This document shows positions 6,779 to 35,417 of a stretch of 50,873 nucleotides of DNA, in pieces. The notes under the pieces are model-generated. The model searched no databases. It was not told where the DNA came from and was given only the letters and a program-made list of their open reading frames with translations. Each line of letters begins with the position of its first letter. Positions within the stretch are counted from its first letter, which is position 1. Made by a program: the position numbers and the translations under genes. Origin of the DNA: a virus (lineage: Duplodnaviria > Caudoviricetes); the IMG/VR virus record IMGVR_UViG_3300048558_000003, positions 1 to 50,873 of that record; one strand, given 5' to 3'.

Positions 6779-8338
6779 ATGTATAACGGCGCAATTATTG
6801 CCATGAAGGCGAAGAACCAGATGATCCCGAATGCTTTTTGGGACAAGGTTCTCCCCGAATATGGCAAGGTATTGGGTGTGTCAGTGGTGGATGGCAAGAG
6901 CCTACTGGCTCTCCCCAATATCCCCAAGGGCAACATCAACAAGGATGCCTTGAACGGCTTGCAAGAGAAGTTCAAGTCCGCCTCAATCCTCTTCTTCTTG
7001 GGGGATTTCGAGGATGGTTTCCAGTCCTACAGCGTACAGCCCTTCACGGTGCTGTCCGATAAGGACAACAATCCCATTCTGTCTTGCTTCACAGAAGCTT
7101 CATTTAACAATTACAAGCAGGAGAAGGGTACTCACAGCCCTGCTTTCTACGCCTTCAACGAATTTATTATTGAGGAAATCAAGGATGCCTACGATAAGTG
7201 CAAGGGAGACCTTGACGCTCTCATGGGCATGCTCCGAGAGGACAAGCGACTGCGAACCAAGATGCAGGGTGTTCTGTCTCCCTCGGGAACTATGGTCTTC
7301 ATGGCTAATACCAGTGAGATCGTGAAGGTCTTTACTGGTGAGGACGGTCAACCGGAAGAGTTCTCCTTCGGTTGGGCTACTCAAAGCTGCGGCTACCGTG
7401 AGGACAAGGAAGAAGATGAGGAGAAGCTCGTCAAAGCCTTTTCAGGGGAAAAGGAAGAGAAAACCAAAGAGCCTTCTGTTATGGATAAGCTTTTTGGTGA
7501 TACCAAAGCTTCCGTTGAGCTGCCGCCTGCCATCCAAGAAGAAGAGGAGAAGCCGGAGGTTGAAGCTAAACCTGCGGAAGAAGAGCAGAAGCCTGAGGAA
7601 GAGTTTGAAGAAGTCAAGATAACCATTCCTGAGGCGATGAAGAGCAAGCAGCAGAAAAAGGACTGGTGGCGTGCTCAGCTCGGCTTCCTGCCGTCGAACT
7701 ATATTAAGCGCGAGACCTTCCTCGTGAAGCGGTATCCTAAGACGGGAGTACTGATCGGTGAAGACGACACCAAACTTGTCCACGGAAAGACATACAAGTC
7801 TTTCTATGACGCCGCTGTTGCTATGGCTAATAATCGTGGCGTTGGTAACGCTGGCAAGGATACTGCACCTCACCACATCCCCGCCACCGAAACTGCCGTC
7901 AAGCCCCCTGCAGTCGAGCCCAAGCAAGAAGAAGCTCCCGTCAAAGACCTTTCCAGCTCCATCAGCACCCTCTCAGCTGAGGATCGCAAGGCCATTGCCA
8001 AGGACTTCCTCGACAGCGCACCTGTGAAGAAGTCGTTGGATAACCACGCCAACGAGATCATGGACCCGGAGAAGATGAAGACCGAGTTGGCTAAGTACAA
8101 GACCTTCACCGAGGAAATGTCCATCAAGCTGACGGACACCTTCAAGTGGAATAAGGATGCTCTCAAGCATCTGGCTAAGGTTAATCTGGATGGGTTCATC
8201 CTTCTCTTCCTTGAGAACCAGATGGCCAATCCAGCATTCAAGAAATATCTTGCTGAGACCCGCAAGCCCGTAGACAAGCCCGCCGAAGCCCCCTCGGCAG
8301 AGCAGAAGCCGAAGCAACGAGTTCAGCTGCCGCTGTAA
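6779..8338 (+). CDS. Large protein with possible degenerate class-II glutamine amidotransferase (Ntn) N-domain and acidic linker
   Basis: N-terminus GAIIAMKAKNQMIP..LGVSVVDG and later VQPF echo phage GATase-II; no N-terminal Cys. Confidence 0.55.
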   Translation: MYNGAIIAMKAKNQMIPNAFWDKVLPEYGKVLGVSVVDGKSLLALPNIPKGNINKDALNGLQEKFKSASILFFLGDFEDGFQSYSVQPFTVLSDKDNNPILSCFTEASFNNYKQEKGTHSPAFYAFNEFIIEEIKDAYDKCKGDLDALMGMLREDKRLRTKMQGVLSPSGTMVFMANTSEIVKVFTGEDGQPEEFSFGWATQSCGYREDKEEDEEKLVKAFSGEKEEKTKEPSVMDKLFGDTKASVELPPAIQEEEEKPEVEAKPAEEEQKPEEEFEEVKITIPEAMKSKQQKKDWWRAQLGFLPSNYIKRETFLVKRYPKTGVLIGEDDTKLVHGKTYKSFYDAAVAMANNRGVGNAGKDTAPHHIPATETAVKPPAVEPKQEEAPVKDLSSSISTLSAEDRKAIAKDFLDSAPVKKSLDNHANEIMDPEKMKTELAKYKTFTEEMSIKLTDTFKWNKDALKHLAKVNLDGFILLFLENQMANPAFKKYLAETRKPVDKPAEAPSAEQKPKQRVQLPL

Positions 8339-8440: not shown

Positions 8441-9184
8441 ATGAGTTTCTTTACTAGTCGAGATGCCCTCAAGAGAGCCATGCTCGATATCCAGACTACA
8501 GCTAGTGAATACAGCAAATGGACTCCGGATGTAGTTCATTTGGAGTCCCATGCCTTTCAACTCCTCTTTGTCTATGATCGTCTGCAACCTGATTTCCCTG
8601 ACTACGAAAAGGTGGTCAAAGAGCATGTGATCCATGCTGGCATTGCATTCACGAATGAGAAGTTTGTGATGCAGAAGTTCTGTCTGGGTAAGGACTCATA
8701 CCCGATTATCCAGCGGAAAGATAAGTACATCCTCACCCCACCACGCAGGATCAAAGGGCAGCTCTATTACATCCAGTCCGAGGTGATCAAAGAGCTTGAC
8801 TCGATGGCTCGGAATGGGATAGAGTTCAAGCGAGAGCTTCTTGAAATCTACATGCCCTACACCCATCTCAAGAAGCCTGCTCCCATGCTGTACGGCAAGG
8901 AGCGTGAAGAAGCGATGGCTAGGGGTGAGCCTGAGGGTCGAACGCGAGCTGAATATCTCGCAGTGTTCGGCACCGAACATCCTTCCTTCCACATTAAGAA
9001 GCATAAGATTTTGAAAGCCTACGGATATGTAGGTATCAATGATTACTGGGATGGAGTATCCAACCCAGAAGAATTCGAAGGGATCACCAACATGAGTTGG
9101 GGCAATGTGCAGGCATTCAAAGCACATGATCCTGGTATTGGAACCTACTACCATTTCACCAAGAGAGAGTTATTTGACAAATAG
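8441..9184 (+). CDS. Gamma-glutamylcyclotransferase (AIG2-like) fold protein, divergent
   Basis: LLFVYDRLQ (cf. FVYGTL); IKGQLYYI..IKELDSMARNGIEFKRELLEI. Confidence 0.7.
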   Translation: MSFFTSRDALKRAMLDIQTTASEYSKWTPDVVHLESHAFQLLFVYDRLQPDFPDYEKVVKEHVIHAGIAFTNEKFVMQKFCLGKDSYPIIQRKDKYILTPPRRIKGQLYYIQSEVIKELDSMARNGIEFKRELLEIYMPYTHLKKPAPMLYGKEREEAMARGEPEGRTRAEYLAVFGTEHPSFHIKKHKILKAYGYVGINDYWDGVSNPEEFEGITNMSWGNVQAFKAHDPGIGTYYHFTKRELFDK

Positions 9185-10745
9185 TAAAATTGTTCAAGCA
9201 CATTTACCATGCCCAGACGCCGAAGGTTGTGGCTCCTCTGATGCGTACGCAATCTGGGATGATGGGCATGGTTTCTGCTTTTCCTGTAATAAAGCATTCA
9301 ATAAAGAACGTAAGGGATATATTGAGCCAGAATTTACTTATGAATATTTACCTAGACGTAATATCTCAGCTGAGACATTTAGATTTTTCGAGACAAAGAC
9401 GAAGGTAAATGGCGACGGTAAACCTGTTGCAGTTGGGTATAAGTACCCCAACGGAAGTTATAAAATTAGAAACTTAGAGAAGAAAGAGTTCTACACCGAA
9501 GGTGACATCTCTAAGGCAGGACTGTTCGGCAGAGATAAGTTTGCCGCAGGCGGGTCACGCTATGTGACCGTAACAGAAGGGGAAGATGATGCTCACAGTC
9601 TTTACGAGGTCTTGCAAGGCCCTGTCGTCTCTGTTAAATCTGCTAGTAGTGCTGTTTCTGATTGTACTGCTGATTGGGAATGGCTCAATTCCTTTGAACG
9701 CATCTATCTCGCGTTCGACAGTGATGCAGCCGGTAGAGAAGCTCTGTCAAAAGTTGCAAGACTCTTCGATTATAACAAAATCTACCACGTCAAGTTCACC
9801 AATCGAAAAGACGCAACCGACTACCTCGAACACGGGGAGCGTCAGCAATTAAAGAACATTTGGTGGAATTCCAAGAAGTATCTGCCTGACAGCATCGTCT
9901 CGTCATTCAGCGACTTTAAGGACATTCTATCTAAGCCTGATCCCGTGGGTATCCCATACCCATTCCCCACGCTGACTAGAATGACGTATGGGATACGCCC
10001 CGGTGAGAGTGTACTGATCACTGCCCAAGAGGGCGTAGGTAAAACGGAGGTGATGCATGCTATCGAATACCAGCTTCTTAAATACACCGATGATGCGGTC
10101 GGTGCGATATTTTTGGAAGAGCCGAAGAAACGTCATCTACAAGCCATCGCTGGAATTGAGTTACAGAAGCCTGTCCGCCTGCCGAATTCTGGCGTCAGCG
10201 ATGAGGAAACATTCGATGCAGTACAGAGGGTTGTACGAGAAGATGATCGTCTTCATGTCTATTCTCATTTCGGGTCAGATGATCCAGAAGTTATTCTCGA
10301 CACTATACGATTTCTCGTCTCTGCGCGTAACTGTCGTTATATTCTTCTTGATCATATCACTATGGTTGTGTCGGGTCTTGCCGGAGAAGAAGAACGACGG
10401 GCCCTAGACTATCTTACGACTAGATTGGAGATGATGGTCCAAGAGTTAAACTTCTCTCTAATCTTTGTCTCTCATGTGAACGACCACGGACAGACTCGTG
10501 GGTCTCGTTACATCGGTAAGATATGTCACATTCGTATTGATCTAACCCGTGACGTGGAAAACGGTAGTAACGAAATCCACCTGTCTGTGCCGAAGAATAG
10601 ATTTGGAATGAAGACTGGACCGGCTGGTGTCATTGTATTCGATCCAGAGAAATATCAGTTCCGTGAGTTGGGTGATGAAGGTTTCGCAGCCAACGCAAAC
10701 GAAGAATACAATGGACACAAGGTACGAGCTGAAGATCAATCCTGA
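9174..10745 (+). CDS. T7 gp4-like DNA primase-helicase
   Basis: Zn ribbon CP..CGSSDA..FCFSC, TOPRIM TEGEDDA / FDSD, Walker A AQEGVGKT, ILLDHIT, KNRFG; TTG start inferred. Confidence 0.96.
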   Translation: MTNSKIVQAHLPCPDAEGCGSSDAYAIWDDGHGFCFSCNKAFNKERKGYIEPEFTYEYLPRRNISAETFRFFETKTKVNGDGKPVAVGYKYPNGSYKIRNLEKKEFYTEGDISKAGLFGRDKFAAGGSRYVTVTEGEDDAHSLYEVLQGPVVSVKSASSAVSDCTADWEWLNSFERIYLAFDSDAAGREALSKVARLFDYNKIYHVKFTNRKDATDYLEHGERQQLKNIWWNSKKYLPDSIVSSFSDFKDILSKPDPVGIPYPFPTLTRMTYGIRPGESVLITAQEGVGKTEVMHAIEYQLLKYTDDAVGAIFLEEPKKRHLQAIAGIELQKPVRLPNSGVSDEETFDAVQRVVREDDRLHVYSHFGSDDPEVILDTIRFLVSARNCRYILLDHITMVVSGLAGEEERRALDYLTTRLEMMVQELNFSLIFVSHVNDHGQTRGSRYIGKICHIRIDLTRDVENGSNEIHLSVPKNRFGMKTGPAGVIVFDPEKYQFRELGDEGFAANANEEYNGHKVRAEDQS

Positions 10746-11993: not shown

Positions 11994-12016
11994 GTGTCTA
12001 GAAAGGATAGTCGATA

Positions 12017-12463
12017 ATGGAAGTTAAAACGGACGAGAAGGAGCAGGAAATGGTGCCTAAGGCTCCTTGGATACCCCGTGTAGTCACTGGGGGTAAGGAC
12101 GGTGGAAGTCATAAGTTTGGTGACGGTCCTGACTGGCTTAGGGACCTGCCTACCGGGTCTACTTTCTTAGCTCAGGACAAGCATTTCAATAATGTCCGTG
12201 AAGATAAGTATTGGGTGCTCGGTGGTCCATTCACTGTAACCTTCCGTACTCATAACGGTCGAGGTGTGGTACTGGCAGCTGAGAGCCCCACCGGACAACA
12301 TGCATTCATGCCTGTGGATAGCCTCAGGTTCAGCAGCAAGTACTCTCTGTTTGATATCCTTAATCTGGGTGACGGTAAAGCTATCGCACCTACAGAATTC
12401 AACGAAGAAGAAGCTCCAGAAGGAGACAAGAAAGATGGTAGTGAAGGGTCCGTACAGCCTTGA
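12017..12463 (+). CDS. Hypothetical protein
   Basis: ORF with AAGGA SD. Confidence 0.8.
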   Translation: MEVKTDEKEQEMVPKAPWIPRVVTGGKDGGSHKFGDGPDWLRDLPTGSTFLAQDKHFNNVREDKYWVLGGPFTVTFRTHNGRGVVLAAESPTGQHAFMPVDSLRFSSKYSLFDILNLGDGKAIAPTEFNEEEAPEGDKKDGSEGSVQP

Positions 12464-12608
12464 TGATTGGGAGACGATGTTGAACTATAAGTTCCGTTAT
12501 TTCCCTCACATGGAACGTCAGAACAAGAAGTTTAACGGTCGCTATGAAGATCGTATTAACCGCGAGAAAGAGCGATATAAAGAATATCTATTGAAAGAGG
12601 TAGCATAG
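12435..12608 (+). CDS. Small hypothetical protein
   Basis: ATG 12435 after AGGAG; fills the gap before the RlpA gene. Confidence 0.55.
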   Translation: MVVKGPYSLDDWETMLNYKFRYFPHMERQNKKFNGRYEDRINREKERYKEYLLKEVA

Positions 12609-12609
12609 C

Positions 12610-12915
12610 TTGATTAGTACAATTGCTGGATGCGTCATGATGGTGGCTTCCTATTATGGAGGTGGAGATGGACTCTGTGGAAGCAAAACTGCAAGCGGAC
12701 AAAGATTTGATTGTTCGCAACATACGGCAGCACATAGAAACCTGCCATTTGGAACTCGCCTTTCTGTCTCACGTAACGGGCAGACCGTTGACGTTCGCAT
12801 TAACGATAGAGGTCCTTTTATCCGCGGAAGGCATCTCGATTTGTCACTCAGCGCGGCTAAAGCCATCGGATTACACAAAGTAGGTGTAGGAAAGGTTATG
12901 GTGTGTCAGAAGTAG
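12610..12915 (+). CDS. RlpA-like double-psi beta-barrel (lytic transglycosylase family)
   Basis: ASYYG, TASG, TAAHRNLPFGT, VRINDRGPF, DLSLSAA motifs. Confidence 0.93.
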   Translation: MISTIAGCVMMVASYYGGGDGLCGSKTASGQRFDCSQHTAAHRNLPFGTRLSVSRNGQTVDVRINDRGPFIRGRHLDLSLSAAKAIGLHKVGVGKVMVCQK

Positions 12916-13256
12916 AAGAGTCCGAACCCGTTAATACTAAAACTAGAGGTGAGAATGCTCTCTGGAAACACTGGGCTATTGAGCTGGGCTATGAAGACAC
13001 AACCTATGAAGATAGTAATGGTGTTGTAGGACCCAAAGCGGGTTTTGTTCTAGATGCTTGGGAACAAGGCTACGTAGAAGCTTGGGAGACACAGCAGAAG
13101 AAGATTAGAGATATTGAATCTTATCATGCTCGTGAAATCCATGACCGAGGTATGCTTGATTACTATAAAGGTTATGAAGCTGGTCTAAAGAATGCTAAAA
13201 CACATTTGATTAAAATGATGGTTGAAGAGGATAAGTCCAATGAAGGACAGAACTAA
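12903..13256 (+). CDS. Hypothetical protein
   Basis: ORF tightly packed in the operon. Confidence 0.65.
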   Translation: MSEVEESEPVNTKTRGENALWKHWAIELGYEDTTYEDSNGVVGPKAGFVLDAWEQGYVEAWETQQKKIRDIESYHAREIHDRGMLDYYKGYEAGLKNAKTHLIKMMVEEDKSNEGQN

Positions 13257-13390
13257 AGAAATTATTTACGGATTGACTATGTATATGGCTGGTGGTATTA
13301 CTATGCTGATTATGTGTCTTGCATATGCCAGCTTCCATCTCCACGCTGTATGTTCTAGTCCTGAGCACTGCATTATTATTTGGAAATAAA

Positions 13391-13708
13391 ATGCCTTTTG
13401 TTGAACACAGGTTTGGTAAAAATTTACTGCTAAAAGCAGACGGCAATAAACACTATGTCTCTTGGTTGCCTCCTAAGACAAGCAACAGTCCTTATCCCGT
13501 CTTCTGTCAAGATGGAGATGAGGGAGGAGAGACAGCATTCTTTAATGGGGATAATTTTTTAATTCTTAATGGAGATCACCGTAAAGGATATGAAGAGTTG
13601 TATCCTGATTTAGATTTGTGTACTAAATATTTTTGGGATCATATAGATCAGGCATCTTCTTGGTCCGAGCATACAAGTAAAACCCCTAACCGTTTTGATA
13701 AAGCTTGA
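13391..13708 (+). CDS. Hypothetical protein
   Basis: ORF coupled to the polymerase start; start codon uncertain. Confidence 0.6.
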   Translation: MPFVEHRFGKNLLLKADGNKHYVSWLPPKTSNSPYPVFCQDGDEGGETAFFNGDNFLILNGDHRKGYEELYPDLDLCTKYFWDHIDQASSWSEHTSKTPNRFDKA

Positions 13709-15663
13709 GAGTAATCTGTGACATAGAAGCTAACGGGTTAGAGAACCCAACGGAAATCTGGTGTGTAGTCTGTAAAGACATAGACACTGGAGAGATACAC
13801 ATATTTAGAAATGTAACAAATGATGCAAATGATAAAAGACGTTTTCATAGCTTCTGCACTTGTGTGGACTATATTGTTGGCCACAATTGGCTCGGTTACG
13901 ACGGGCCTGTACTTCGCAAACTACTTGGGTGGGATACCATCTCAGGCAGTGTGCAGGTCATCGACACCTTAATCATAAGTAAACTTGTAGACTATTCCAG
14001 ACCCAATGGACATTCAATTGAAGCTTATGGACTTGAGTTTGGTTATCCAAAGGGAGTATTTACAGACTTCTCTCACTACTCAGATGCTATGGTGGAATAC
14101 TGCCAGAGAGACGTGGAAATCACAGAGAAAGTCTATAAGAAATACAGACGCATTATTGAAGATGCCGCTTGGCAACCATCCATTAAGGTAGAACATGATT
14201 TCCAGCTTATTGTTAATGATCTGCATGATAATGGTTTTGCTTTCAATTCCATCAAAGCCCAGAAAATATTAGATGAAGTGACTGCTTCTCTAACGTCTCT
14301 AGACAAAGAGATTGCAGATGCGTTCCCTGAAAGACTTAAACTTATTAAGGAAATTCACCCTAAGCTCACTAAGCACGGTACTCTATCGCGTACTGACTTT
14401 AGATGGGTGGCAGATGGTGACTTGTCTATTTATAATGGGGGTCCTTTTAGTCGTTGTGAATGGACTGCTTTTAATCCATCTAGTCCTAAGCAGATCATTG
14501 AAATTCTTAATAACGCTGGCTGGTCTCCAATAAACAAAACTAAAACTCATATTACAACTGAAAGAGAGTACAATCGTCTCAAGCGTTCTCGACAAGCCGA
14601 TGCCTTAGTTGACTTAAGGCTTAAAGAGTTGTATATTAAAATGGAAGGGTTGAGAAAGACCGGCTGGAAAGTTGATGAAGAAAACCTTTCCACCCTCCCC
14701 CCCTCCGCTCCTGCTCCCTCCCGCCTCTTGGCTAAGCGTATTCTGCTGGAGTCCCGACGAAGGACTCTCACAGAATGGCTTAGCCTTGTAGGGGAAGATG
14801 GACGCATCCACGGGCGCTTCTTCGGTATCGGGGCATGGACCCACCGAATGGCCCACCAAAATCCCAATACAGCTAACATTCCCAATGAATATGATACGAA
14901 TGGGAATAAGAAGCTCTACGGGAAAGAGATGCGCTCCCTATGGGTAGCCCCCCGAAATAGATTGCTGATTGGTGTTGATGCAGAAGGCATTCAGCTACGC
15001 ATCTTCGCCCACTACATAAATGACGCTGAGTTCACTCAATCATTGGTAGAAGGGAAGAAGGATGACAAAACCGATCCACATTCGCTCAACCAAAGGATAC
15101 TTGGTAGTGCGTGTAAGTCTAGAGCCGCTGCTAAACGATTTATCTACGCTCTGCTCTTGGGAGCGGGAATGCAGAAATTATCTGAAATTCTTGCAGCATC
15201 AAATACCGAAACCCAACAAGCTCTTGATCGTTTACTTACCCGATACACTGGATGGGCTGTTCTTAAGGAACAGGTATTTCCGAAGGATGCGACGCGCGGC
15301 TATTTCGTTGGGTTGGACGGTAGAAAGGTCAGTATACCGGGAGAAACGGAAGGTACCCGAAGACATCTGGCAATGTCGGGATACCTCCAGTCTGGAGAAG
15401 CGGTTTGCATGAAGCTGGCCACTCTCAAATTCTACCCGGAGATGCAGGCACTAGGAGGCAAGTTAGTTAATTTTGTTCACGACGAATGGCAGTCTGAATG
15501 CAAGAATAATATGGAGGTCGCAATCCACATAGCAAAACTAAAAGCAGATGCCCTACGACAAGTAGGGGAAGATTTAAAACTTAATTGTCCTCTAGCAGGT
15601 AGCTATTGGAACGATGACCTGAAAGATTATACAATCGGTACGAATTGGAGTGTAACACATTGA
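13705..15663 (+). CDS. Family A DNA polymerase with 3'-5' exonuclease (T7 gp5-like)
   Basis: DIEANGL, GHNWLGYD, YCQRDV (exo); GVDAEGIQLR, RAAAKRFIYALLLG, VHDEWQ (pol motifs A, B, C). Confidence 0.97.
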   Translation: MRVICDIEANGLENPTEIWCVVCKDIDTGEIHIFRNVTNDANDKRRFHSFCTCVDYIVGHNWLGYDGPVLRKLLGWDTISGSVQVIDTLIISKLVDYSRPNGHSIEAYGLEFGYPKGVFTDFSHYSDAMVEYCQRDVEITEKVYKKYRRIIEDAAWQPSIKVEHDFQLIVNDLHDNGFAFNSIKAQKILDEVTASLTSLDKEIADAFPERLKLIKEIHPKLTKHGTLSRTDFRWVADGDLSIYNGGPFSRCEWTAFNPSSPKQIIEILNNAGWSPINKTKTHITTEREYNRLKRSRQADALVDLRLKELYIKMEGLRKTGWKVDEENLSTLPPSAPAPSRLLAKRILLESRRRTLTEWLSLVGEDGRIHGRFFGIGAWTHRMAHQNPNTANIPNEYDTNGNKKLYGKEMRSLWVAPRNRLLIGVDAEGIQLRIFAHYINDAEFTQSLVEGKKDDKTDPHSLNQRILGSACKSRAAAKRFIYALLLGAGMQKLSEILAASNTETQQALDRLLTRYTGWAVLKEQVFPKDATRGYFVGLDGRKVSIPGETEGTRRHLAMSGYLQSGEAVCMKLATLKFYPEMQALGGKLVNFVHDEWQSECKNNMEVAIHIAKLKADALRQVGEDLKLNCPLAGSYWNDDLKDYTIGTNWSVTH

Positions 15664-15799
15664 ATATTAATAAGATTGAAAATGGCTTCACAGTAAGTTT
15701 TTATGACGGTGAAGACTCTTGGAAAGAGAATGAAAAGGTTTATGCATTCACTACTTGGAGTGATGCAGTTAATTGGCTAAAAGATAATGGATATAAAGT

Positions 15800-15967
15800 A
15801 TGACGTTGTATGAAGTTGATTATTCAATGTTAGTGCCTGAGTACGGTGTACTAAATATTGAGGCTGTAGATGCGAACGACGCTGAGATGAAGGCTCTGAA
15901 CCAACTGACTTCAGACGCCCCTCACGCAAATAATGTAGAAATTGAAGCTGTGAAAGAAATTTCCTAA
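15800..15967 (+). CDS. Small acidic hypothetical protein (55 aa)
   Basis: ORF read manually, ends directly before the ssb ATG. Confidence 0.55.
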   Translation: MTLYEVDYSMLVPEYGVLNIEAVDANDAEMKALNQLTSDAPHANNVEIEAVKEIS

Positions 15968-16390
15968 ATGGCTATTATTGAACTAGAAGGTGAGTTGTCT
16001 TGGGTCAAGGCAGTTACTCCCGATGAGTACGAGGGTAAGCGTAACTGGTCTGCCTGTACGACACTCAGCCCCGATGCCCTACAGACTATTATGGAACTGA
16101 AGGCAGAAGGTGTTAAGAACGTCCTTAAGAAGGACGATCAGAACCGTTGGTATATTAAGGTCTCTCGCCGTGACGGCATTTATAAGGGAGACAAGATGAC
16201 TAAGGTGCTTAGCCCGCCTGTAGTCACAGACATCGAAGGTAACATCATCGATGGTGATACCATCGGTAATGGTTCTAAGGGTATCCTGAGAGTGGATGTG
16301 TACGAGCATCCAGTTAAGGGTGGCTCTAAGGCTAAAGCCATGCGTCTTGAGAGTATCAAGATCACTGAGCTTAAGAAACGCGGGGAGTAG
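15968..16390 (+). CDS. ssDNA-binding protein (T7 gp2.5-like OB fold)
   Basis: PPVVTD..IGNGSKG..RLESIKITEL motifs; position after the polymerase. Confidence 0.8.
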   Translation: MAIIELEGELSWVKAVTPDEYEGKRNWSACTTLSPDALQTIMELKAEGVKNVLKKDDQNRWYIKVSRRDGIYKGDKMTKVLSPPVVTDIEGNIIDGDTIGNGSKGILRVDVYEHPVKGGSKAKAMRLESIKITELKKRGE

Positions 16391-16399
16391 CGGCGCGGC

Positions 16400-17700
16400 G
16401 TAGCTCCCTACGGCTTGGACTGAGGAATCCATCCAAGTGTTACTAGGCTGAAGGCTCAGATAAAGCCTAGTTTCAATTATAAATTAGGTACTAGTGGAAA
16501 CCACTCGTCTTTCCCCCTGAAGGAAAGCGTAACAGCCACCATCCATCCGAATATCTATGCACTCGGGTTGTGCGTCAGAAAAAGGTTGGGTCCCAGAGTT
16601 GTGAACTGGTAGTGCTGAGGAGATCGCTGCATCCTTCCAACGGTTGATCTGCGAACCCTCCCACCTCACTCAGACTTGAGGAAGTAGTTTGGGGTGCAGC
16701 TTCGGTTGCGAAGCAAACTGGCCGTTTGCCACTTTCCACCAGTCTAAGATGGAGAAAGCTCAATAACCCTCCTAACGGTGAGGTTATGGCAACCAGACCG
16801 TCCCGCATCTATGCCGGAGACCACCGGCAGCTCATTTCTGATTCGGAAATGAGCAGCAAATAGCAAGTCGCTAAAACTAAACGGTGGGCATGACACCTAG
16901 TAGGTTTGGCAGATAGATGCCGAGGTCAATCCTTCCTCAGAAGGATATTCAACCGACTAAACGTCCTATCCCTAGAGGGTATGAAAGCGTAGTACGTAGC
17001 GGGTGGTGCTGCCATCGGTTATCTACTACTGCCTCCCGTCAAAGTGCTCCGGCAGGAAGGCTTGACGAACCTCTGCCGTCGAAAAGACCTAACGCACGAA
17101 TACACCTACATGTTGGCCGAAAGTTACAGATGCCTGTGAACAGTACCACCGGATGGTATAGTGGCGGTTCGATCCCTCCAACGCTTGGTAGCAGACCAGC
17201 GGAGCTGTTCGGAAGTATGGGCAAGTCTGAGCGGAGGCAGCCTCCTGCAAAGAGGTAAATTCTGGGGTGACGACCAGAACATGTTCTTACTGGGTGGAAA
17301 GGGCCGGTTCGAGTACCATAAGGTGGTGACAACCGACTTAACGCGAGACTGTTGATGCGAATATGCGTCCCATTAGCGCAGAAAGCTCTCAGGTGTCGGC
17401 AAGTGCCTAACTCTGTCTCGGACGCCGCGGACACTTCCCAGAGTGGAATACATGCCGGGATGTCCTACACACCGCTAAACCTAGGTTTTTAGTACCCCAA
17501 CTAATATCGACCGTTACATGGTTGAAAACGAAGGTGGGAATTCACTAGACAGGTTGACAGAGCAGATTACCAACCCTTCGCGCAACCTACACGCCGTGTC
17601 GAAAGCGTGTCCAAACTCCATAGGAGTATAGCTGTGAAGAAGACGTACTCAGTCAGCGGAGTAGCACTTCACAAAGTAGGAGCAGGGATTTTCTCTGTCT
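16400..17700 (+). ncRNA. Large (~1.1-1.3 kb) highly structured non-coding RNA, class unknown
   Basis: No credible ORF in a gene-dense genome; nested long-range helices (16639-48/17506-15, 16685-97/17492-503, 16882-92/17451-74, 16892-98/17391-97) plus many local hairpins; strand assumed from operon context. Confidence 0.8.
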
Positions 17701-17786
17701 CTCTATTAGCTTATCACAACTGGAGGCCCCCTTAACCTCCCCTGTATGTGGGGAGATAAATTAATAAGAACAATGGAGCATCACCC

Positions 17787-18083
17787 ATGTGGCCGTACAC
17801 TCAACCATTCATCATGATGCCCGGTCAAACTCAATCGGGTAATAACTACTCGACCAAAGATATGAAGAAATTCTACAAAGCTTTTATTCAGGCACAGCGC
17901 GAACTGGACGCAGCTAAGAAGCCTGAGGAAAAGAAGAAGGAAGAGAACAAAGCACCGTCCATGACTGCCAAGGAAATGTTGGCTTGGACTACCCTCTTCT
18001 CCCCAATCGTCGGATTGGGAATGATTAATCTCTACATCGTTTGTTATAACCAGATGAAGGTGGCGCTACAGACGCTACATTGA
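17787..18083 (+). CDS. Hypothetical membrane protein
   Basis: SD GGAG; C-terminal hydrophobic segment. Confidence 0.75.
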   Translation: MWPYTQPFIMMPGQTQSGNNYSTKDMKKFYKAFIQAQRELDAAKKPEEKKKEENKAPSMTAKEMLAWTTLFSPIVGLGMINLYIVCYNQMKVALQTLH

Positions 18084-18092
18084 GAGGGCATT

Positions 18093-18626
18093 ATGGCAGA
18101 TATTTGGTTTATCTCAGACACACACTTCTTCCACGAAAACATTATTCAATACTGTGGGCGTCCTTTTAAAGATGCTGAATTTATGAATGAATACCTGATC
18201 CAGATGTGGAATGAGACTGTAAAGCCTCAGGATAAAATTTACCATCTGGGAGATGTTGGTTTAGGATTTGGTGGGGACGACGATAAACTCATGCGCCTTC
18301 TCTCTCGTTTGAATGGGCATAAGAGATTGATTGTCGGTAACCACGACAATCTTAAATCCAAAGCTCTTCAGAATAATTTTGAGAGGATTGAACTGTGGGC
18401 TGGCCGTAAGGAATGGGATTTCACTTGCACACACGTCCCTATGGACCAGAGGCATCTCAGAGATGGGTGGATCAATGTCCACGGACATCTCCACAATAAC
18501 CCCAGTCCAGAATTCTATCAAATCTCTGTTTGTGTAGAACAGATTGACTATAAACCCATCCATTTGGATGACATTAAAGCTAAGATTAAGAAAATTGCAA
18601 AAACACATCCATCAATTAATCCCTGA
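18093..18626 (+). CDS. Calcineurin-like metallophosphoesterase
   Basis: SDTHF, HLGD, GNHD, THVP, HGHLH motifs. Confidence 0.93.
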   Translation: MADIWFISDTHFFHENIIQYCGRPFKDAEFMNEYLIQMWNETVKPQDKIYHLGDVGLGFGGDDDKLMRLLSRLNGHKRLIVGNHDNLKSKALQNNFERIELWAGRKEWDFTCTHVPMDQRHLRDGWINVHGHLHNNPSPEFYQISVCVEQIDYKPIHLDDIKAKIKKIAKTHPSINP

Positions 18627-19476
18627 CGTTCAGGGACTATTAAAGACAAAAGGTTGGTTCGGTGACGAACTCAGACAAGGATTTTCTACTGAAATTGTTG
18701 GACGCCTTGAAGGACAGTTCAGACAACGTGATTTTTCACCTAGCCTCAGACTCTCCCAAATGGGACGAAAGTGTCCGAGAGCTTTGTGGTATTCTATTCG
18801 CCACCCTGAGCAGGCTGAGGAGTTGCCTCCATGGGCAGAATTCAAATTCTCCTTCGGACACATAATCGAAGCACTCGCCATATCATTTGCTAAAGCTGCA
18901 GGTCACGAAGTCGTAGGAGAACAGGATGCAGTTTCTGTCGATGGGGTCGTGGGTCATAGGGATTGCATCATTGATGGCTGTCTCGTGGATGTCAAATCTG
19001 CTTCTAGTCCGAGTTTTGAGAAGTTCAAGACTGGGCGTATCGCAGAAGAGGACAGCTTTGGCTATCTGGATCAACTGGATGGCTATCTTGTGGGGTCTCA
19101 TTCAGACCCTCTGTTACGTGTAAAAGACAGAGCGTATTTACTTGCAATTGATAAACAACTAGGACATATGTGTTTATATGAGCACAGACTCAGAGAAGAA
19201 AGTATTAGACAGAGAATTCGAGAATATAAGCAGGTGGTTGAACAATCGTCTCCACCAGCTTGCGAGTGCGGAACTCTCGCCCCAGACGCGAGCGGAAATA
19301 CGCGCCTCGACGTTAAGAGCAGTTACAATCCTTACAAGTTCTGTTGCTTTCCGGAGCTAAGAATATTCATTTATTCTAAAGGCCCCCAGTATTTTACCAA
19401 GGTGGTCAAGACACCTACGTATAAAGGGGTTCCTTTAATGGAGATTGACCGTGCAGGTAATCCAGTCTTTCCTTAG
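18544..19476 (+). CDS. PD-(D/E)XK (Cas4-like) exonuclease
   Basis: LRLSQMG..CPRALWY, GHRD..VDVKS, QLDGY, C-terminal Cys cluster; true start probably ~18596. Confidence 0.85.
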   Translation: MTINPSIWMTLKLRLRKLQKHIHQLIPDVQGLLKTKGWFGDELRQGFSTEIVGRLEGQFRQRDFSPSLRLSQMGRKCPRALWYSIRHPEQAEELPPWAEFKFSFGHIIEALAISFAKAAGHEVVGEQDAVSVDGVVGHRDCIIDGCLVDVKSASSPSFEKFKTGRIAEEDSFGYLDQLDGYLVGSHSDPLLRVKDRAYLLAIDKQLGHMCLYEHRLREESIRQRIREYKQVVEQSSPPACECGTLAPDASGNTRLDVKSSYNPYKFCCFPELRIFIYSKGPQYFTKVVKTPTYKGVPLMEIDRAGNPVFP

Positions 19477-19605
19477 ACAAGAGATTAAGAGTGCAGAAAT
19501 GGTTATAAATTACTACCACATGCGTATGAGACAGTGGGAAGAGAGACGACGTGAAGCTCTTAAGAAACTAATTGCTGAACAAATTAAAGATTTTAACCGT
19601 AATTC

Positions 19606-19634
19606 TTGACCATTTATGAAAGATAATGTATAAT
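19606..19634 (+). promoter_or_regulatory. sigma70 promoter
   Basis: TTGACC-N17-TATAAT with TG just upstream of the -10. Confidence 0.7.
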
Positions 19635-19950
19635 GAAGTTGGGTTTAGACGAAACTAAATTCGCATTAAAGCAACGTATTGACGAATTAACGAAGTGGTT
19701 AGGGCGATATCCCAGTAGTCCAGAGACTTCTAGACGACAGATTGAGCTAGAGACCGCTAAAGAACAGTTGGGATTTATTGAGAAGAAGTAATGTCTGAAG
19801 ATGATAACTGCACTTGTGACAACCCCTTTCGTCCCGGACATAAGCTATTTCTTTGTGGTTCTGACCTTTGTGGTCGCATTAAGCATCTTATGGTTGATAC
19901 CTTGAAGACTACGAAAGGTTTCGATCCAGAACGTAAAGTTATAATCTTAA

Positions 19951-20292
19951 GTGAAGAAGATAAAGACTAGAAATAAGTTTGAGACTAAGCTGGTAAAGCA
20001 AGCTCAATCTTCTCCACATGAAGTGACGTATGAGTCTGAGAAGCTTCCCTACGTAATAGAAGGGAACTACATTCCAGACATAATCATACACAAGAAGCAG
20101 AAGATATACATTGAAGCTAAAGGACATTTCCGTCCAGAGGCTAAACGTAAGATGGTTGCTGTTAAGAAGCAACATCCTGAATTAGACATACGTATTGTCT
20201 TCTATAGTTATAACAAGAAATATATACGATGGGCCACTAAACATGGCTTCACGTTTGCAATTGGTGATATTCCCGATGAATGGCTTCTCTGA
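19951..20292 (+). CDS. Endonuclease I / Holliday junction resolvase (T7 gp3-like)
   Basis: YIPD..YIEAKG.F, HPELDIRIVF, WA.KHGF, IPDEWL motifs. Confidence 0.93.
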   Translation: MKKIKTRNKFETKLVKQAQSSPHEVTYESEKLPYVIEGNYIPDIIIHKKQKIYIEAKGHFRPEAKRKMVAVKKQHPELDIRIVFYSYNKKYIRWATKHGFTFAIGDIPDEWLL

Positions 20293-20372
20293 CCGTGATG
20301 TGTATTCCTTTGTTGCCGGACTAGGTATGGGCTGGTTTACAGCCGGTACGTTTATTTACTTCGTATTTACAT

Positions 20373-20513
20373 TTGTTAAGTAAGTTATTAGAGATTTACA
20401 CTCTAGAAGAAATATTAGAATACAATGATCTGTCTCCTGAGGACTGTCTACAGTTCTTAGTTGAGAATGAGTTCATTGAACTACCTGAAATAAAGCCGTT
20501 GGATTATGACTAA
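20373..20513 (+). CDS. Small acidic hypothetical protein
   Basis: Manually read ORF LLEIYTLEEILEYNDL.., TAATG-coupled to the NUDIX gene. Confidence 0.5.
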   Translation: MLSKLLEIYTLEEILEYNDLSPEDCLQFLVENEFIELPEIKPLDYD

Positions 20514-20938
20514 TGTATAATGTAGCAACTACAGCTATTATTTTTAACGACGATAATCAAGTTCTCCTTACTAAAAGAAGCAAATCAAAAAATAAATGGC
20601 CCGGTAAGTGGACGGTCCCCGGAGGCAGGTTGGAAGATGTTGATTTTATTGGGACTCCGACTGCGATTAACAATCAGTGGTACCATACCTTAGAAAATTC
20701 TCTTCGTAGAGAAGTGATGGAAGAAACTGGGGTTAAGATTACCGATATTCAGTATTTGTGTAATATAGCCATTCCTGATACAATTATTATCTCCTACACT
20801 GCCAGATATGCAGGAGGCATCATCGACCCTCAACCAGAAGAAGTAGAAGCTTACGCGTGGGCGTGGGAAAGCGATCTAGATGATTTCGACCTAATTGATG
20901 GGATCAAAGAAGAAATTATATTAGCATTTTATAAATGA
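20513..20938 (+). CDS. NUDIX hydrolase
   Basis: PGG..E and RREVMEETG Nudix box (with an insertion). Confidence 0.92.
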   Translation: MYNVATTAIIFNDDNQVLLTKRSKSKNKWPGKWTVPGGRLEDVDFIGTPTAINNQWYHTLENSLRREVMEETGVKITDIQYLCNIAIPDTIIISYTARYAGGIIDPQPEEVEAYAWAWESDLDDFDLIDGIKEEIILAFYK

Positions 20939-21186
20939 CTAAACACCCTAGGAATAAAGCCGAGAGGCGATTAATCGAAGCTAAGAAAAAGAAGAAGAGA
21001 GTCCCTATGACCCGTGCAGTTGAACTTTCTCAAGGACATGCCTGCAGTGCTGTGGAAGCATATCTGTTTTCTATGCGTTTGATTGATGCTGATGAGCGTG
21101 TAGTGTTCATCGCTAATGCTCCAAATGGATTGGACTATTTTATCTCCTTGGAGAAAATGAAAGAGCAGGAAGGAAGTGTAAATTAA
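20935..21186 (+). CDS. Hypothetical protein
   Basis: ATGA-coupled ORF. Confidence 0.6.
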   Translation: MTKHPRNKAERRLIEAKKKKKRVPMTRAVELSQGHACSAVEAYLFSMRLIDADERVVFIANAPNGLDYFISLEKMKEQEGSVN

Positions 21187-21441
21187 TTGGTTCGTAAAGA
21201 TAGAAATTATAAACAGGAAGCTGAGTGGGCTAGCTCTCCTGAACAAATAGCGCGACGTGTAGCTCGTAACCGTGCCCGTAGGAAGGCTATCCGAGAGGGT
21301 AGAGTTCGTAAGGGTGATGGTAAAGAGCTAGATCACGTCGGTTATCATCGGACTGGCAGTCTCGATAATGTCCCTACCCGTGTGACTACTCGTCGTGCGA
21401 ATAGGGAAAGACAACCTCCAACTAAAACTAAACGAAAGTAA
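21187..21441 (+). CDS. Small basic HNH-like protein
   Basis: RNRARR..KGDGKELDH..G..N..ANR pattern seen in podovirus HNH-like proteins. Confidence 0.7.
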   Translation: MVRKDRNYKQEAEWASSPEQIARRVARNRARRKAIREGRVRKGDGKELDHVGYHRTGSLDNVPTRVTTRRANRERQPPTKTKRK

Positions 21442-21482
21442 TATATTATACTCTGCATGACCAAGACAGAGAGGAAAGAAAA

Positions 21483-21659
21483 ATGGAAAATATCAATGTT
21501 CAAGAAAATCCTGAAGTGGCTGACATGGCCCTTCCGCAAGCTCTGGAGGCTGGTGAAGCCTTCTTCCAAACCGACGCAGAAGTCGGCGGTGACCCCATCG
21601 AAGCGGGGACGGCCGAGGAAGACGCCGACGGCACCCCAGACGGTGTGACAATTCACTAA
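21483..21659 (+). CDS. Small highly acidic protein (58 aa); overlaps basic ORF 21457-21648
   Basis: MENINVQENPEVAD..DGVTIH read manually; SD GAGGA. Confidence 0.55.
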   Translation: MENINVQENPEVADMALPQALEAGEAFFQTDAEVGGDPIEAGTAEEDADGTPDGVTIH

Positions 21660-21749
21660 ATCACGTATGCCTTACTCTACGAGACCCATTGCGTAACAAC
21701 AGATATCCCAAAGGCGTGCAGGCAAGTCCCGTAGTTGGACGTGATGTTG

Positions 21750-21781
21750 AAGGAGGTCTGAAAGGGCCTCCTTCTTTATTT
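21750..21781 (+). terminator. Intrinsic terminator-like hairpin
   Basis: GAAGGAGG..CCTCCTTC followed by TTTATTT. Confidence 0.7.
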
Positions 21782-21793
21782 GGAGTATAATAT

Positions 21794-22384
21794 ATGGAAA
21801 CTATTACCTACTATAATGGTAGTCCTACTATGACACTTGCAGCTTCAAACAGTACTATTAGTCAATATAAAGTATGCTCTCCTCTGAACCATTGGGGGAT
21901 TGGTATTATTGACGAACCAAAACAAGAGCCAGTAAAGGAAACTGCCATGTCTATCGAACAGAGCCAGATCGACTACCTCATTGTCCGTGCTCGTAACGTC
22001 AAGAGCAATCTCGACTACAAGCTGTGGGATCAGTTCAACATGTATGCGGACAACACTCCTAAGACTTACAAGGAGCTGATTGATGCCATCAAGGGTGGCA
22101 AGTACAAGTTGAACGAGAAGCGCACCAAGCAGATTGATGCGCGAATTGCTGCCGATGCTGATGAAGAATTTGATGACGACCGTTTCTACTTCAACGGTCC
22201 GTTTGATGGAATCATCTTCGATGGCCCTCGGCCTGATCGGAAAGGCAGGGACGCTGCGAGCGACGAGCTTGGTAAGGCGTTCACCAAGACTATGGATGCT
22301 ATCAAGGTTCTCCCCGCTACCGAGGGTCTGAAGGCCCTGCAGGAGTTCGAGAACTGGGTGCCGTCGAACCTGCCCAAGAACTAA
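21794..22384 (+). CDS. Hypothetical protein
   Basis: SD GGAG; strongly biased codons in the 3' part; a second start is possible near 21947. Confidence 0.8.
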   Translation: METITYYNGSPTMTLAASNSTISQYKVCSPLNHWGIGIIDEPKQEPVKETAMSIEQSQIDYLIVRARNVKSNLDYKLWDQFNMYADNTPKTYKELIDAIKGGKYKLNEKRTKQIDARIAADADEEFDDDRFYFNGPFDGIIFDGPRPDRKGRDAASDELGKAFTKTMDAIKVLPATEGLKALQEFENWVPSNLPKN

Positions 22385-33474: not shown

Positions 33475-35417
33475 TGGCTAAACTCACACTAACCGATCTA
33501 ACCAATCTCTCTAATGAACAGTCTGTTGTTAGTTCAATTAACAGCAACAACACTGCTATTGAGACAGTGTTAGAAAATACTCTGTCTAGAGACGGCACCT
33601 CTCCCAATACGATGAGTGCCGATCTAGATATGAATTCCAATCAAATTCTGAACCTGCCTGCTGCTACTGTAGACACAGAACCAGTACGTAAGGCAGAATT
33701 TGATGAAGCTATTGAAAGCTTAACCGCAGCAGGCATAGCTCTAAGTTCTTCTGGACTTATTGCCTATGACTACGATACTGCAACTGTAAATGCTAGAACC
33801 TTCGTTGCTGCAGATGGTTCCGGTATTACCATTACCAATGGTGATGGTGCAGATGGTAATCCTACCTTTGACTTCGATAGCGATACCATATCTTTCGCAG
33901 ATGCCATTGACGCTCTAGTACCTTTGACCCCCGCTGCAAATAAGATGGCCTATTATACTAGTGCCTCTGCTGCAGCAATGACTGACCTAACTGCATTCGC
34001 AAGGACCATACTTGATGACTCAGACGCTAGCACAGCCCGAGCTACCCTCGGTCTCACAATCGGAACTCACGTTCAAGCTTATGACGCTGAACTCGCAGCT
34101 CTTGCAGGGCTTACTTCAGCTGCAGACAAACTGCCATACTTCACAGGAAGTGGCACGGCTTCGGTCGCTGATCTCTCTTCTTTTGGAAGAACTCTCATTG
34201 ACGACGCAGATGCTTCGACGGCTAGAGCGACACTTGGTCTTACAATCGGGACCAACGTACAGGCGTACGATGCAGAGCTTGCTGCCCTCGCAGGAACAAC
34301 CTCAGCAGCCGATAAGCTCCCATACTACACCGGATCAGGAACAGCCACTACAGCCGATTTCACTTCCTTCGGAAGAAGCTTAGTAGATGACGCTAACGCA
34401 GCTGCTGCTCTAACCACTCTAGGCGTATCTGTATTTGCACAGACTCTGCTTGATGATGTGGCTGCTACCAATGCCAGAACAACTCTTGGTTTGGTGATTG
34501 GAACAGACGTACAAGCTCAAGATGCTGAACTCTCCGCCCTCGCAGGACTCACCTCCGCTGCAGACAGCCTCCCCTACTTCACTGGATCAGGCACAGCTGC
34601 CGTCACAACTTTCACGAGCTTTGGAAGAAGCTTGGTGGATGACGCCGATGCCTCGGCAGGACGCACCACACTAGGTGTTGTAATTGGTACGGATGTTCAA
34701 GCTCAGAATGCCATCCTAAGTGATTTAGCTGGCCTCACACAAGCTTCGAATAAACTCCCGTATTTCGATAGCTCCACTACAGCAGCTACCACAGACCTCT
34801 CTAGCTTCGGTAGAAGCCTGATTGATGACGCTGATGCTAGTGCTGCTAGGACTACTCTCGGATTGGTAATTGGCACCAATGTTCAAGCCTATGATGCTGA
34901 ACTGGCTGCCCTAGCTGGATTAACCTCTGCTGCCGATGCTCTACCCTATTTTACTGGTTCTGGTACTGCTGCTACGACTACACTCTCAAGTTTCGCTAGA
35001 ACTTATCTAGACGATAGTACTGCGATAGCTTTTAGAGCTACAACTGGCACTGAGCCTGAGTATAATATTAAGGTTACATCCGATACAACTGCATTAACAA
35101 CTGGTGACGGTAAGATATACTTCACTATCCCGTCCTCTCTAAACGGACTAACCATTAAAGCTGCACATGCCTCTGTGGGCTCTGTCTCCTCCTCTGGAGC
35201 AATTACAGTGCAGATTAGAAACGTAACTGATGCTGTAGATGTCCTGTCTACCGCTATTACAATTGATCAGAGTGAGTTTACCTCCTACACAGCTGCTACC
35301 CCTCCTGTTATCAACACTGCTAATGACGATGTTGCTACTGGCGATATAATTGCAGTAGACGTTGATGGAGCAGGTGTATCTGCTGCTGGTCTAAGTGTTC
35401 ATCTAACCTTCGGATAA
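33474..35417 (+). CDS. Tail fibre protein with ~63-aa tandem repeats
   Basis: N-terminal [19 protein letters not shown] anchor; about five ARxTLGLxIGTxVQAxDAELx[12 protein letters not shown] repeats. Confidence 0.85.

Follow-up and report, generated by a model that had tools for sequence, protein, structure and literature searches.

To our knowledge, few bacterial or phage RNAs longer than about 500 nt have a conserved structure (GOLLD, ROOL, OLE and a few others), and none of these has an established function. According to one account (PMC12286853), GOLLD lies near tRNA islands, may carry tRNAs in its linker, consists of a conserved and a variable part, and in many cases exceeds 800 nt. The same account describes ROOL as an RNA of phages and prophages with multiple pseudoknots, high abundance and no known protein partner. 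For short peptides that hold ribosomes at their own stop codon, PMC3985003 states that C-terminal Pro-Pro slows termination, attracts tmRNA and is avoided at bacterial C-termini, that Pro-Pro-stop is a preferred site of tmRNA action, and that TnaC regulates through arrest at Pro-stop. We analyzed a complete 50,873-bp virus record of IMG/VR (IMGVR_UViG_3300048558_000003), the whole of which is called the window below. Its replication module contains a gap (16391-17786) after the gene for a Gp2.5-like single-stranded DNA-binding protein (SSB), and a first-pass annotation made from the sequence had read this gap as one giant folded RNA. We put at roughly 55% the probability that the gap encodes a giant structured RNA, one of a new family in phages, that probably arises by processing of the operon transcript, acts in trans and is coupled to a Pro-Pro-stop attenuator.

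The locus would, in this explanation, consist of two elements. The first, on the + strand from approximately 16474 to approximately 17575-17620, would be the gene of a very large structured non-coding RNA, which most likely shares the transcript of the replication genes and persists as a stable fragment of higher abundance. Its structure would comprise numerous local helices, a hairpin resembling the T arm of tRNA and at least one probable pseudoknot, and the RNA would belong to a fast-evolving, undescribed family that occupies the slot between SSB and a Cas4-like exonuclease in a large clade of uncultured phages of about 50 kb. The second element, directly 3' of the first, would be a short open reading frame (ORF) with its own Shine-Dalgarno sequence that ends in Arg-Pro-Pro-TAA and is followed by a G+C-rich hairpin. 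A ribosome terminating slowly at Pro-Pro-stop would occupy the 5' arm of this hairpin, and the stalled ribosome could thereby set the level at which transcription or translation proceeds, past more than 1 kb of untranslated RNA, into the genes downstream. Our committed guess is that the giant RNA acts in trans as a scaffold or decoy of the GOLLD/ROOL kind, and its T-loop and tRNA-like modules might build tertiary structure or engage the tRNA-binding machinery of the host.

Relatives were gathered by their polymerase, 80 loci from IMG/VR and 80 from metagenomes (160 in all, given L numbers here). Sequence matches to the gap were found by nhmmer/blastn in 3 of the 160 loci, L082 (E 5.5e-26), L084 (8e-17) and L083 (4.3e-8), and the polymerases of L082, L083 and L084 are also those most similar to the polymerase of the window (76, 69 and 67%, respectively). 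L082 and L083 are cut by contig ends, and L084 is nearly complete. Another relative, L123, was found through a profile of the mid-domain (2.5e-9) and through covariance model R1 (E 0.0019, a rough value); its conserved blocks stand in the same order as in the window.

Several parts of the conserved body could be described from these alignments. The AGTGG/CCACT hairpin at the 5' end has an alternative distal partner at 16536-39, and the neighboring hairpin CTTTCC/GGAAAG (16509-14/16522-27) carries a conserved loop, CCCTGAA. The core block contains helices at 16699-16702/16711-16714 and 16727-31/16787-91, a hairpin at 16764-86 and an invariant CTTTC/GAAAG pairing (16732-36/16754-58); a possible pseudoknot, picked out by eye from the alignment, would join CTGG 16718-21 with CCAG 16739-42. 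Model R1, which represents this block, gave 113-124 bits on its 4 training sequences. Within the mid-domain are a T-arm-like hairpin (GGCGG-TTCGATC-CCTCC, 17163-17179, with one C.T mismatch), a hairpin CCTC-loop-GAGG (17241-44/17252-55) and a hairpin TTCTGG-GGTGACGA-CCAGAA (17260-79). Four stems are conserved without gaps in all three full-length sequences; none of the four has two covarying pairs, and the closing helix of the mid-domain alone looks usable among them.

Homologue covariation had been proposed as a check on the RNA, and it was seen in the 5' part and in one mid-domain hairpin. RNAalifold predicted 55 pairs in the 5' 350 nt, with 95.5% paired cells in the predicted helices. Changes on both sides were observed at 25 of the 55 pairs, compared to 15.4 ± 2.1 in shuffled controls (0 of 500 reached the observed number) and 1-5 in slid controls. 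Likewise, the hairpin at 17241-55 covaried at 6 of 6 pairs over 10 distinct sequences, such that one loop, G/A-TG-A/C-AA, is carried by ten different covarying stems. A strain variant in DNA run X17 had 16510 T>C and its partner 16526 A>G changed together, which is independent support.

The stretch was present in 20 public runs of bioreactor and wastewater metagenomes, 6 of which were metatranscriptomes, and three RNA runs (X14, X15 and X8) were compared over 12000-22000. The contig over the gap was the longest and deepest of the 10 kb in X14 (16522-17574, depth 8.8 vs 2.5-4.4 for the others) and in X15 (16500-17506, depth 19.8 vs 2.0-4.3). In X8, a contig spanning 15861-17793 had a depth of 14.1 vs 3.2-9.3 for the others. 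Taken together, the contigs over the RNA were 2-5 times as deep as those flanking it. These contigs hint at a stable RNA of about 1.0-1.1 kb. An X14 contig that ends at 17741, 6 nt past the leader stop, and the contig-free stretches were not usable as evidence. With approximately 870 nt conserved and RNA contigs of approximately 1.0-1.05 kb, the RNA falls in or above the size class of GOLLD, as first proposed, and the central claim of the first-pass annotation, a large folded RNA on the + strand, is upheld by conservation, covariation and presence in RNA libraries, with no Rfam family to account for it.

An origin, recombination site or packaging site acting as DNA would suit a location among the primase-helicase, polymerase, SSB and exonuclease genes. 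Such a site does not account for the presence in RNA libraries, nor for compensatory changes that keep G-U pairs, which make sense for RNA only. The G+C content of the gap is above that of its surroundings (0.50-0.54 vs 0.36-0.46 in several neighboring windows), and it contains no iterons and no A+T-rich stretch, one 14-nt direct repeat being all that was found. We consider a DNA-level element very improbable. The repeat, CAACCGACT(A/T)AACG, lies within the RNA at 16950-16963 and 17330-17343, 380 nt apart, and strain differences of X17 at 16960 and 16962 fall in its first copy.

Similar gaps are widespread among the related phages. Among distinct loci holding both anchor genes, an ORF-free gap of at least 700 nt was present at this slot in 55 of 68 with polA at least 50% identical (median 988 nt) and in 1 of 13 below 50% identity, which form a sister clade. 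The window holds such a gap, 1,396 nt, between its Gp2.5-like SSB and Cas4-domain exonuclease. The gaps of relatives are interlinked by a web of partial similarities, and their content varies greatly. One shared motif, CCGGTGRCAGACGA...ATCAGYC...GCTTAGTC, has GRC paired with GYC, and the two covary as read from the alignment; this motif, like CCGGTGGCAGACGA, was found 26 times inside the intervals vs 8 times outside. In the window, the core motif has only a diverged, interrupted counterpart. When window-type sequences were left out of its construction, a profile of this motif matched L084 (1.9e-5), L083 (6e-5) and L123 (1.9e-3), and the window would be a divergent member of the family, linked through these three loci and the mid-domain. 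The window, L083 and L084 have the hairpin with the CCCTGAA loop at the RNA's 5' end, and other loci have it 500-800 nt 3' of the core motif (L123 5024-5041, L004 3866, L020 7373, L051 14001 and L132 7913); the shifted copies could be rearranged or duplicated modules.

The mid-domain was modeled as R2, which was trained on the window, L084, L123, L006 and L088. R2 gave 115.8 bits on the window, a training sequence, and 8 further matches (5 distinct: L030, L011, L012/L100, L027/L142/L143 and L127; E 0.001-0.08), all on the + strand; those of L011, L012 and L027 lay inside the respective gaps when checked. The window has each of the features of this domain, namely the T-arm-like hairpin, the GTGGTAACA box and the covarying hairpin with the G/A-TG-A/C-AA loop. 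One further type of locus, the L061/L062 type, belongs to the same phage group, has its slot after polA and SSB, contains T-arm look-alikes, had no Rfam match, and possesses a mini-ORF with a Pro-Pro-stop end (MGITLDMRDEITVKQPWSTGPP and a stop in L061). There was no detectable sequence similarity between the L061 type and the RNA of the window, and both R1 and R2 missed L061.

The T-arm-like sequence GGTTCRANNC occurred 167 times in 302 kb inside the intervals vs 60 times in 1,576 kb outside, an enrichment of approximately 15-fold. Relaxed ARAGORN runs over all loci returned 12.3 tRNA-like calls per 100 kb inside vs 1.9 outside (6.5-fold), and a search of the gaps of 20 loci by ARAGORN gave no tRNA. 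Ordinary tRNAs were called by ARAGORN in the slot of three loci (L010 13425-13496, Ile-GAT; L150 4861-4932, Cys-GCA; L065 12822-12897, Trp-CCA), and most relatives had T-arm look-alikes only, not callable as tRNAs. Both enrichments, these three real-looking tRNAs and the great differences in gap content among relatives are what might be expected of an island of several smaller RNAs, in which decayed or unusual tRNA-like genes and small RNAs lie side by side. The window, however, has one T-arm-like hairpin and no tRNA call, block order and spacing are kept in L084, L123 and L006, and individual RNA contigs, 1,007-1,053 nt long, reach across the body. We find an island of small RNAs rather doubtful.

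The second element was defined in all loci as an ORF of no more than 45 codons with a Shine-Dalgarno sequence ahead and a Pro-Pro-stop end. Of 127 distinct intervals, including many incomplete ones, 74 had such a mini-ORF, once each, and its density was 28.3 per 100 kb inside the intervals vs 0.60 outside. Among loci with both anchors, 68 of 69 with polA at least 50% identical had the mini-ORF vs 1 of 13 below 50%; that sole sister-clade locus, L064, is also the only one of its group with a gap. The stop codon was TAA in 65 of 68 leaders, and the peptide ended in QPP or RPP in 56 of 68. Leader peptides are conserved within subgroups (for example, ...SxQQKPRPP). The 60 nt past the stop had a median folding energy of -17.9 kcal/mol in 73 loci vs -11.6 kcal/mol in control windows, and pairing began at a median of 5 nt past the stop. 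At the sequence level, the leader has the features of TnaC-like leaders, which are a short ORF with a ribosome-binding site, a C-terminal Pro and RNA structure by the stop. We infer that it would be a stalling-leader attenuator governing read-through into ORF 17787 and beyond.

The nucleotides of Pro-Pro-stop are themselves nearly fixed, CCNCCTTAA (window 17727-17735; L006 9612, L014 6638, L051 14317). The sequence CCTCCTTA is also that of the 3' end of 16S rRNA, the anti-Shine-Dalgarno sequence. In the window, the 5' arm of the hairpin overlaps CCTCC, which has an alternative partner in GGAGG 17722-26. The Pro-Pro-stop motif may act at the RNA level too, by pairing with nearby GGAGG-like sequences.

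The near-universal leader raises the alternative that the whole 1.2 kb is a giant sensory leader acting in cis, similar to a T-box or riboswitch, which works through the mini-ORF and hairpin and has no function in trans. The co-occurrence of RNA and leader (68 of 69 vs 1 of 13) would be explained, as would the position of the T-arm motifs, 115 of which were upstream of the leader and 2 downstream. No promoter or terminator was found between the RNA and the leader, and both share strand and operon with their neighbors. T-loop elements dock the elbows of tRNAs in T-box leaders, RNase P and the ribosome. However, the contigs over the body were 2-7 times deeper than the leader region (X14, 8.8 vs 4.4; X15, 19.8 vs 2.7), and because they are deeper and break before the leader, they fit an RNA that is stable on its own. 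Known cis regulators also fall far short of this element in size and in domain turnover, and no T-box or riboswitch model matched, even at E<=10. On balance we judge a purely cis-acting leader unlikely, if still worth serious thought.

A different connection between the two elements would be that giant RNA and mini-ORF form one ribosome-engaging machine, in which the mini-ORF would hold a slowly terminating ribosome at the 3' end of the RNA and thereby tether to it more than 1 kb of folded RNA with T-arm modules. The tethered RNA would act on the translation apparatus; it might sequester or mimic tRNA, tmRNA-SmpB or release factors, or sense how available they are, and could in this way control when early phage genes give way to middle or late ones. 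If true, such an RNA-ribosome particle would define a new regulatory class and would exceed in size every known bacterial regulatory RNA that acts in cis or in trans. It is an improbable proposal at present.

Searches for known families gave no match. Rfam 15 covariance models were run over the whole window at gathering score, with 0 matches, and over 16200-17900 at E<=10, where the sole match was a meaningless one to SNORD104 (15.6 bits, E 1.7). There were also 0 Rfam matches in 11 related loci, and none in the gap of L053. ARAGORN found neither tRNA nor tmRNA (permuted or not) in the window, and a relaxed run likewise gave nothing in the gap. The statement of the first-pass annotation that the RNA could not be matched to tRNA, tmRNA, RNase P or a group I/II intron therefore holds at E<=10, and the models it named for checking (GOLLD, ROOL, OLE and HEARO, and additionally raiA) showed no match either. 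No match to the gap was found by blastn in 50,697 phage records. A search of IMG/VR for loci with the SSB protein gave 17 pattern matches, none of which was a relative. Pattern scans with the conserved core block gave 0 matches in IMG/VR and 2 stretches in the genomes of 185,579 species (a Planctomycetia metagenome-assembled genome and Psychrobacter), which were taken as chance because neither had extended similarity. Iterated nhmmer with the 5' blocks found just one short match, in L037, beyond L082-L084. The cultured phages closest by polymerase were no more than 41% identical (Roseobacter phage CRP-5 and Lentibacter phage ICBM2). Full-text searches of the literature, motif lists in supplements being outside their scope, brought up no account of such an RNA, nor of phage RNAs followed by a Pro-Pro-stop leader. 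What the present analysis adds is a subfamily of the window type, a mid-domain that its relatives share, statistics for the whole clade and a coupling to the Pro-Pro-stop leader that is close to universal.

The same searches bear on an ORF-less self-splicing intron or mobile RNA element lying after, or inserted into, the SSB gene. An insertion of this kind could explain why the SSB of the window, 140 aa, is without the C-terminal tail of 20-40 aa, ending in an aromatic residue, that six relatives have in an alignment with 7 relatives. Yet no group I or II model matched at E<=10, and no open frame of the gap specifies an acidic tail with an aromatic last residue, so that a downstream exon is missing. 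Relatives with a full-tailed SSB carry the gap too, and the gap is syntenic and apparently vertically inherited across the clade. The RNA contigs showed no splice joints, which is weak evidence. We give an intron next to no credence. The close SSB homologues P0001-P0008 (63-94% identical, 140-143 aa) are likewise without the aromatic-ending C-terminal tail.

Several observations weigh against a giant RNA as we have described it, and the first of them concern its folding. The minimum free energy of the gap had been offered as a test, and its z-score was -4.66 for the + strand and -2.86 for the - strand (30 shuffles). Five coding windows of 1,396 nt from the same genome gave -4.50, -2.44, -2.64, -5.89 and -1.09 (12 shuffles each); these values are comparable, and therefore folding energy does not distinguish the gap. 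The z-score was dropped as evidence after these coding controls. The coding windows 6800-8195 and 33500-34895 were as low as or below the gap (-4.5 and -5.9, 12 shuffles), which reflects either generally strong mRNA structure in this genome or the noise of small shuffle sets.

The nested long-range helices of the first-pass annotation (H1, H2 and so on) also fared poorly. Every complementarity it listed is present in the sequence. A partition function was used to score eight helices (H2-H8, with H4 in two parts), and H1 and the ninth pairing (16901-13/17072-91) were checked as duplexes only. Pairing of 16685-97 with 17492-503 had a probability of 0.3-1.0, whereas H2, H3 and H5-H8 were at approximately 0. 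Local hairpins that show covariation compete for the bases of H1 (16491-16513/17524-48). The counterpart, in L083 and L084, of the 5' strand of the favored helix pairs with a local insertion instead, and compensatory differences between the two, read from the alignment, support that local pairing; the helix 16685-97/17492-503 is therefore not conserved across the subfamily. As homologous sequences break off or can no longer be aligned in the 3' part, covariation tests reach none of the long-range helices. The long-range pairs that RNAalifold predicted from a full-length alignment of 3 sequences are for the most part broken or fall in unalignable columns, and they were not used. The single closed, nested architecture of 1.1-1.3 kb rests on the helices found by eye and is unsupported as written.

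Of the local hairpins proposed at first, GCAGC-TTCG-GTTGC is not the conserved form; the covarying stem is 16699-16702/16711-16714, which the fold of the single sequence lengthens to 16699-704/16709-14. The hairpin at 16830-54 is real as an inverted repeat, and is an insertion found in this phage alone. As for the extent of the RNA, a large body stands, and the last approximately 150 nt (17622-17755) are instead Shine-Dalgarno sequence, mini-ORF and hairpin. This analysis gave no support to the suggestion of a ribozyme.

Further reservations come from the evidence itself. The covariation set comprised 4-5 sequences from about 3 lineages, and the alignment in which the changes were counted had also served to predict the structure. 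A further change in X17, 16511 T>C, is not matched at its partner 16525 among the variants listed. The RNA contigs carry no strand or true ends, the runs were chosen for holding the stretch, DNA carry-over is possible, and the depth of DNA run X17 was somewhat higher over the RNA too (5.9-7.1 vs 3.2-5.7). The core-motif profile built without window-type sequences had no match in the window. A scan for promoters and terminators did not find a + strand promoter inside the gap, and gave weak terminator-like hairpins only. That the gap is a functionless decayed gene or junk spacer, structured by chance, would agree with the indistinct z-score and with a folding ensemble that disfavors most of the long-range helices found by eye. 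Against such a spacer stand the conserved blocks with covariation, the retention of an ORF-free gap in 55 of 68 related loci and the enriched depth in RNA libraries, and we regard it as exceedingly unlikely.

Table 1. Features of the giant RNA locus and of neighboring genes in the window.
Feature	Position	Strand	Remarks
Conserved body of the putative giant structured RNA	16474-17345	+	nhmmer/blastn, profile, covariation, RNA contigs
5' hairpins	16493-16530	+	helices 1-3 of alignment, both-side changes
Core block	16683-16798	+	alignment; R1 model; helices 9-12
Diverged counterpart of CCGGTGRCAGACGA...GCTTAGTC motif	16822-16880	+	contains hairpin insertion 16830-16854
Mid-domain	17131-17325	+	closed by TGCCT/AGGTG 17131-35/17321-25; alignments, model R2
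Variable 3' region of the RNA	17346-17621	+	unalignable with homologues; deeper RNA contigs end at 17506 and 17574
Shine-Dalgarno sequence AGGAG	17622-26	+	
Leader mini-ORF	GTG 17634 to TAA 17735	+	33 codons, ending NWRPP-stop (translation)
Hairpin CTCCCC/GGGGAG	17737-17755	+	begins 2 nt past leader stop
Unconserved spacer with two small hairpins	16391-16473	+	similarity to L082/L083/L084 begins at ~16474-16480
Primase-helicase	9105-10745		replication module
Family A DNA polymerase (polA)	13705-15663		replication module
Gp2.5-like SSB gene	15968-16390	+	upstream neighbor; PHROG 112, E 1.5e-8; 140 aa
Downstream ORF	17787-18083	+	98 aa, without family match
Phosphoesterase	18093-18626		
Cas4-domain exonuclease	18544-19476		

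The locations of these features are given in Table 1. Nearly all long ORFs of the window are on the + strand, and an endonuclease is also part of the replication module. The gap of about 1.4 kb described at first measures 1,396 nt, from the stop codon of the SSB gene (16390) to the ATG of ORF 17787. It contains 18-25 stop codons per frame in all six frames, with all three kinds of stop, and its two longest inner ORFs (113 aa on the + strand and 131 aa on the - strand) had no Pfam match, in keeping with the description of its ORFs as junk. Recoding, with one stop read as sense, was rejected because all three stops occur in every frame. A minus-strand protein was rejected as well, the 220-aa ORF of L084 having no counterpart in the window. 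That open frame (L084 4339-5004, minus strand) is antisense to the RNA homologue and had no Pfam match; it probably arose by chance, in RNA-coding DNA rich in G+C, and might wrongly be annotated as a gene. The terminator scan rated a spacer hairpin at 16452-16468 as weakly terminator-like. Since the conserved 5' box AAATTAGGTACTAGTGG occurs a single time in the genome, it is not one of a set of repeated phage promoters.

Among described RNAs, GOLLD (RF01998) is similar in being a non-coding RNA of great size and elaborate fold, with a conserved and a variable part, that phages and prophages encode (PMC12286853). GOLLD is tied to tRNAs; the present family is rich in T-arm look-alikes with an occasional real tRNA, the window itself having one T-arm-like hairpin and no tRNA. 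The present RNA matches no GOLLD model even at E<=10, is longer (a conserved body of approximately 870 nt and RNA contigs of approximately 1.0-1.05 kb, against many GOLLD RNAs above 800 nt), lies inside a replication operon and not in a tRNA island, and is followed by a Pro-Pro-stop leader. ROOL (RF03087) is a phage-borne RNA of the same kind; its model does not match, and the present RNA belongs to uncultured soil and wastewater phages and not to the rumen or to prophages of Firmicutes. The present RNA is roughly twice the size of ROOL. Because matches to the defining models fail, it is not a member of either family. tmRNA likewise unites tRNA-like elements and pseudoknots with a short reading frame in a single molecule; in contrast to tmRNA, the present RNA had no ARAGORN or Rfam match, and the mini-ORF has its own Shine-Dalgarno sequence and start and lies 3' of the T-arm elements.

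The leader compares most closely with TnaC, which (PMC3985003) is also a short ORF with its own ribosome-binding site, with a regulatory RNA structure adjoining the stop and the controlled genes downstream, and which ends in Arg-Pro-stop where the present leaders have Arg/Gln-Pro-Pro-stop. The similarity is limited to the C-terminal residues; many of the present relatives have a hairpin instead of a Rho site after the stop, and 1 kb of structured RNA lies ahead. The locus would add to the giant RNAs a family with a conserved body at least as long as that of GOLLD, carried by most phages of a widespread, uncultured clade from soil, wastewater and bioreactors and always at the same slot of a T7-like replication operon. 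Its fast sequence turnover with kept helices makes it a good subject for covariation and cryo-EM structure work. From the pairing with a leader, a link of giant phage RNAs to the translation apparatus becomes conceivable. Unlike GOLLD and ROOL, this RNA comes with a nearly invariant and mechanistically readable partner, the Pro-Pro-stop mini-ORF and its hairpin, which provides an experimental handle.

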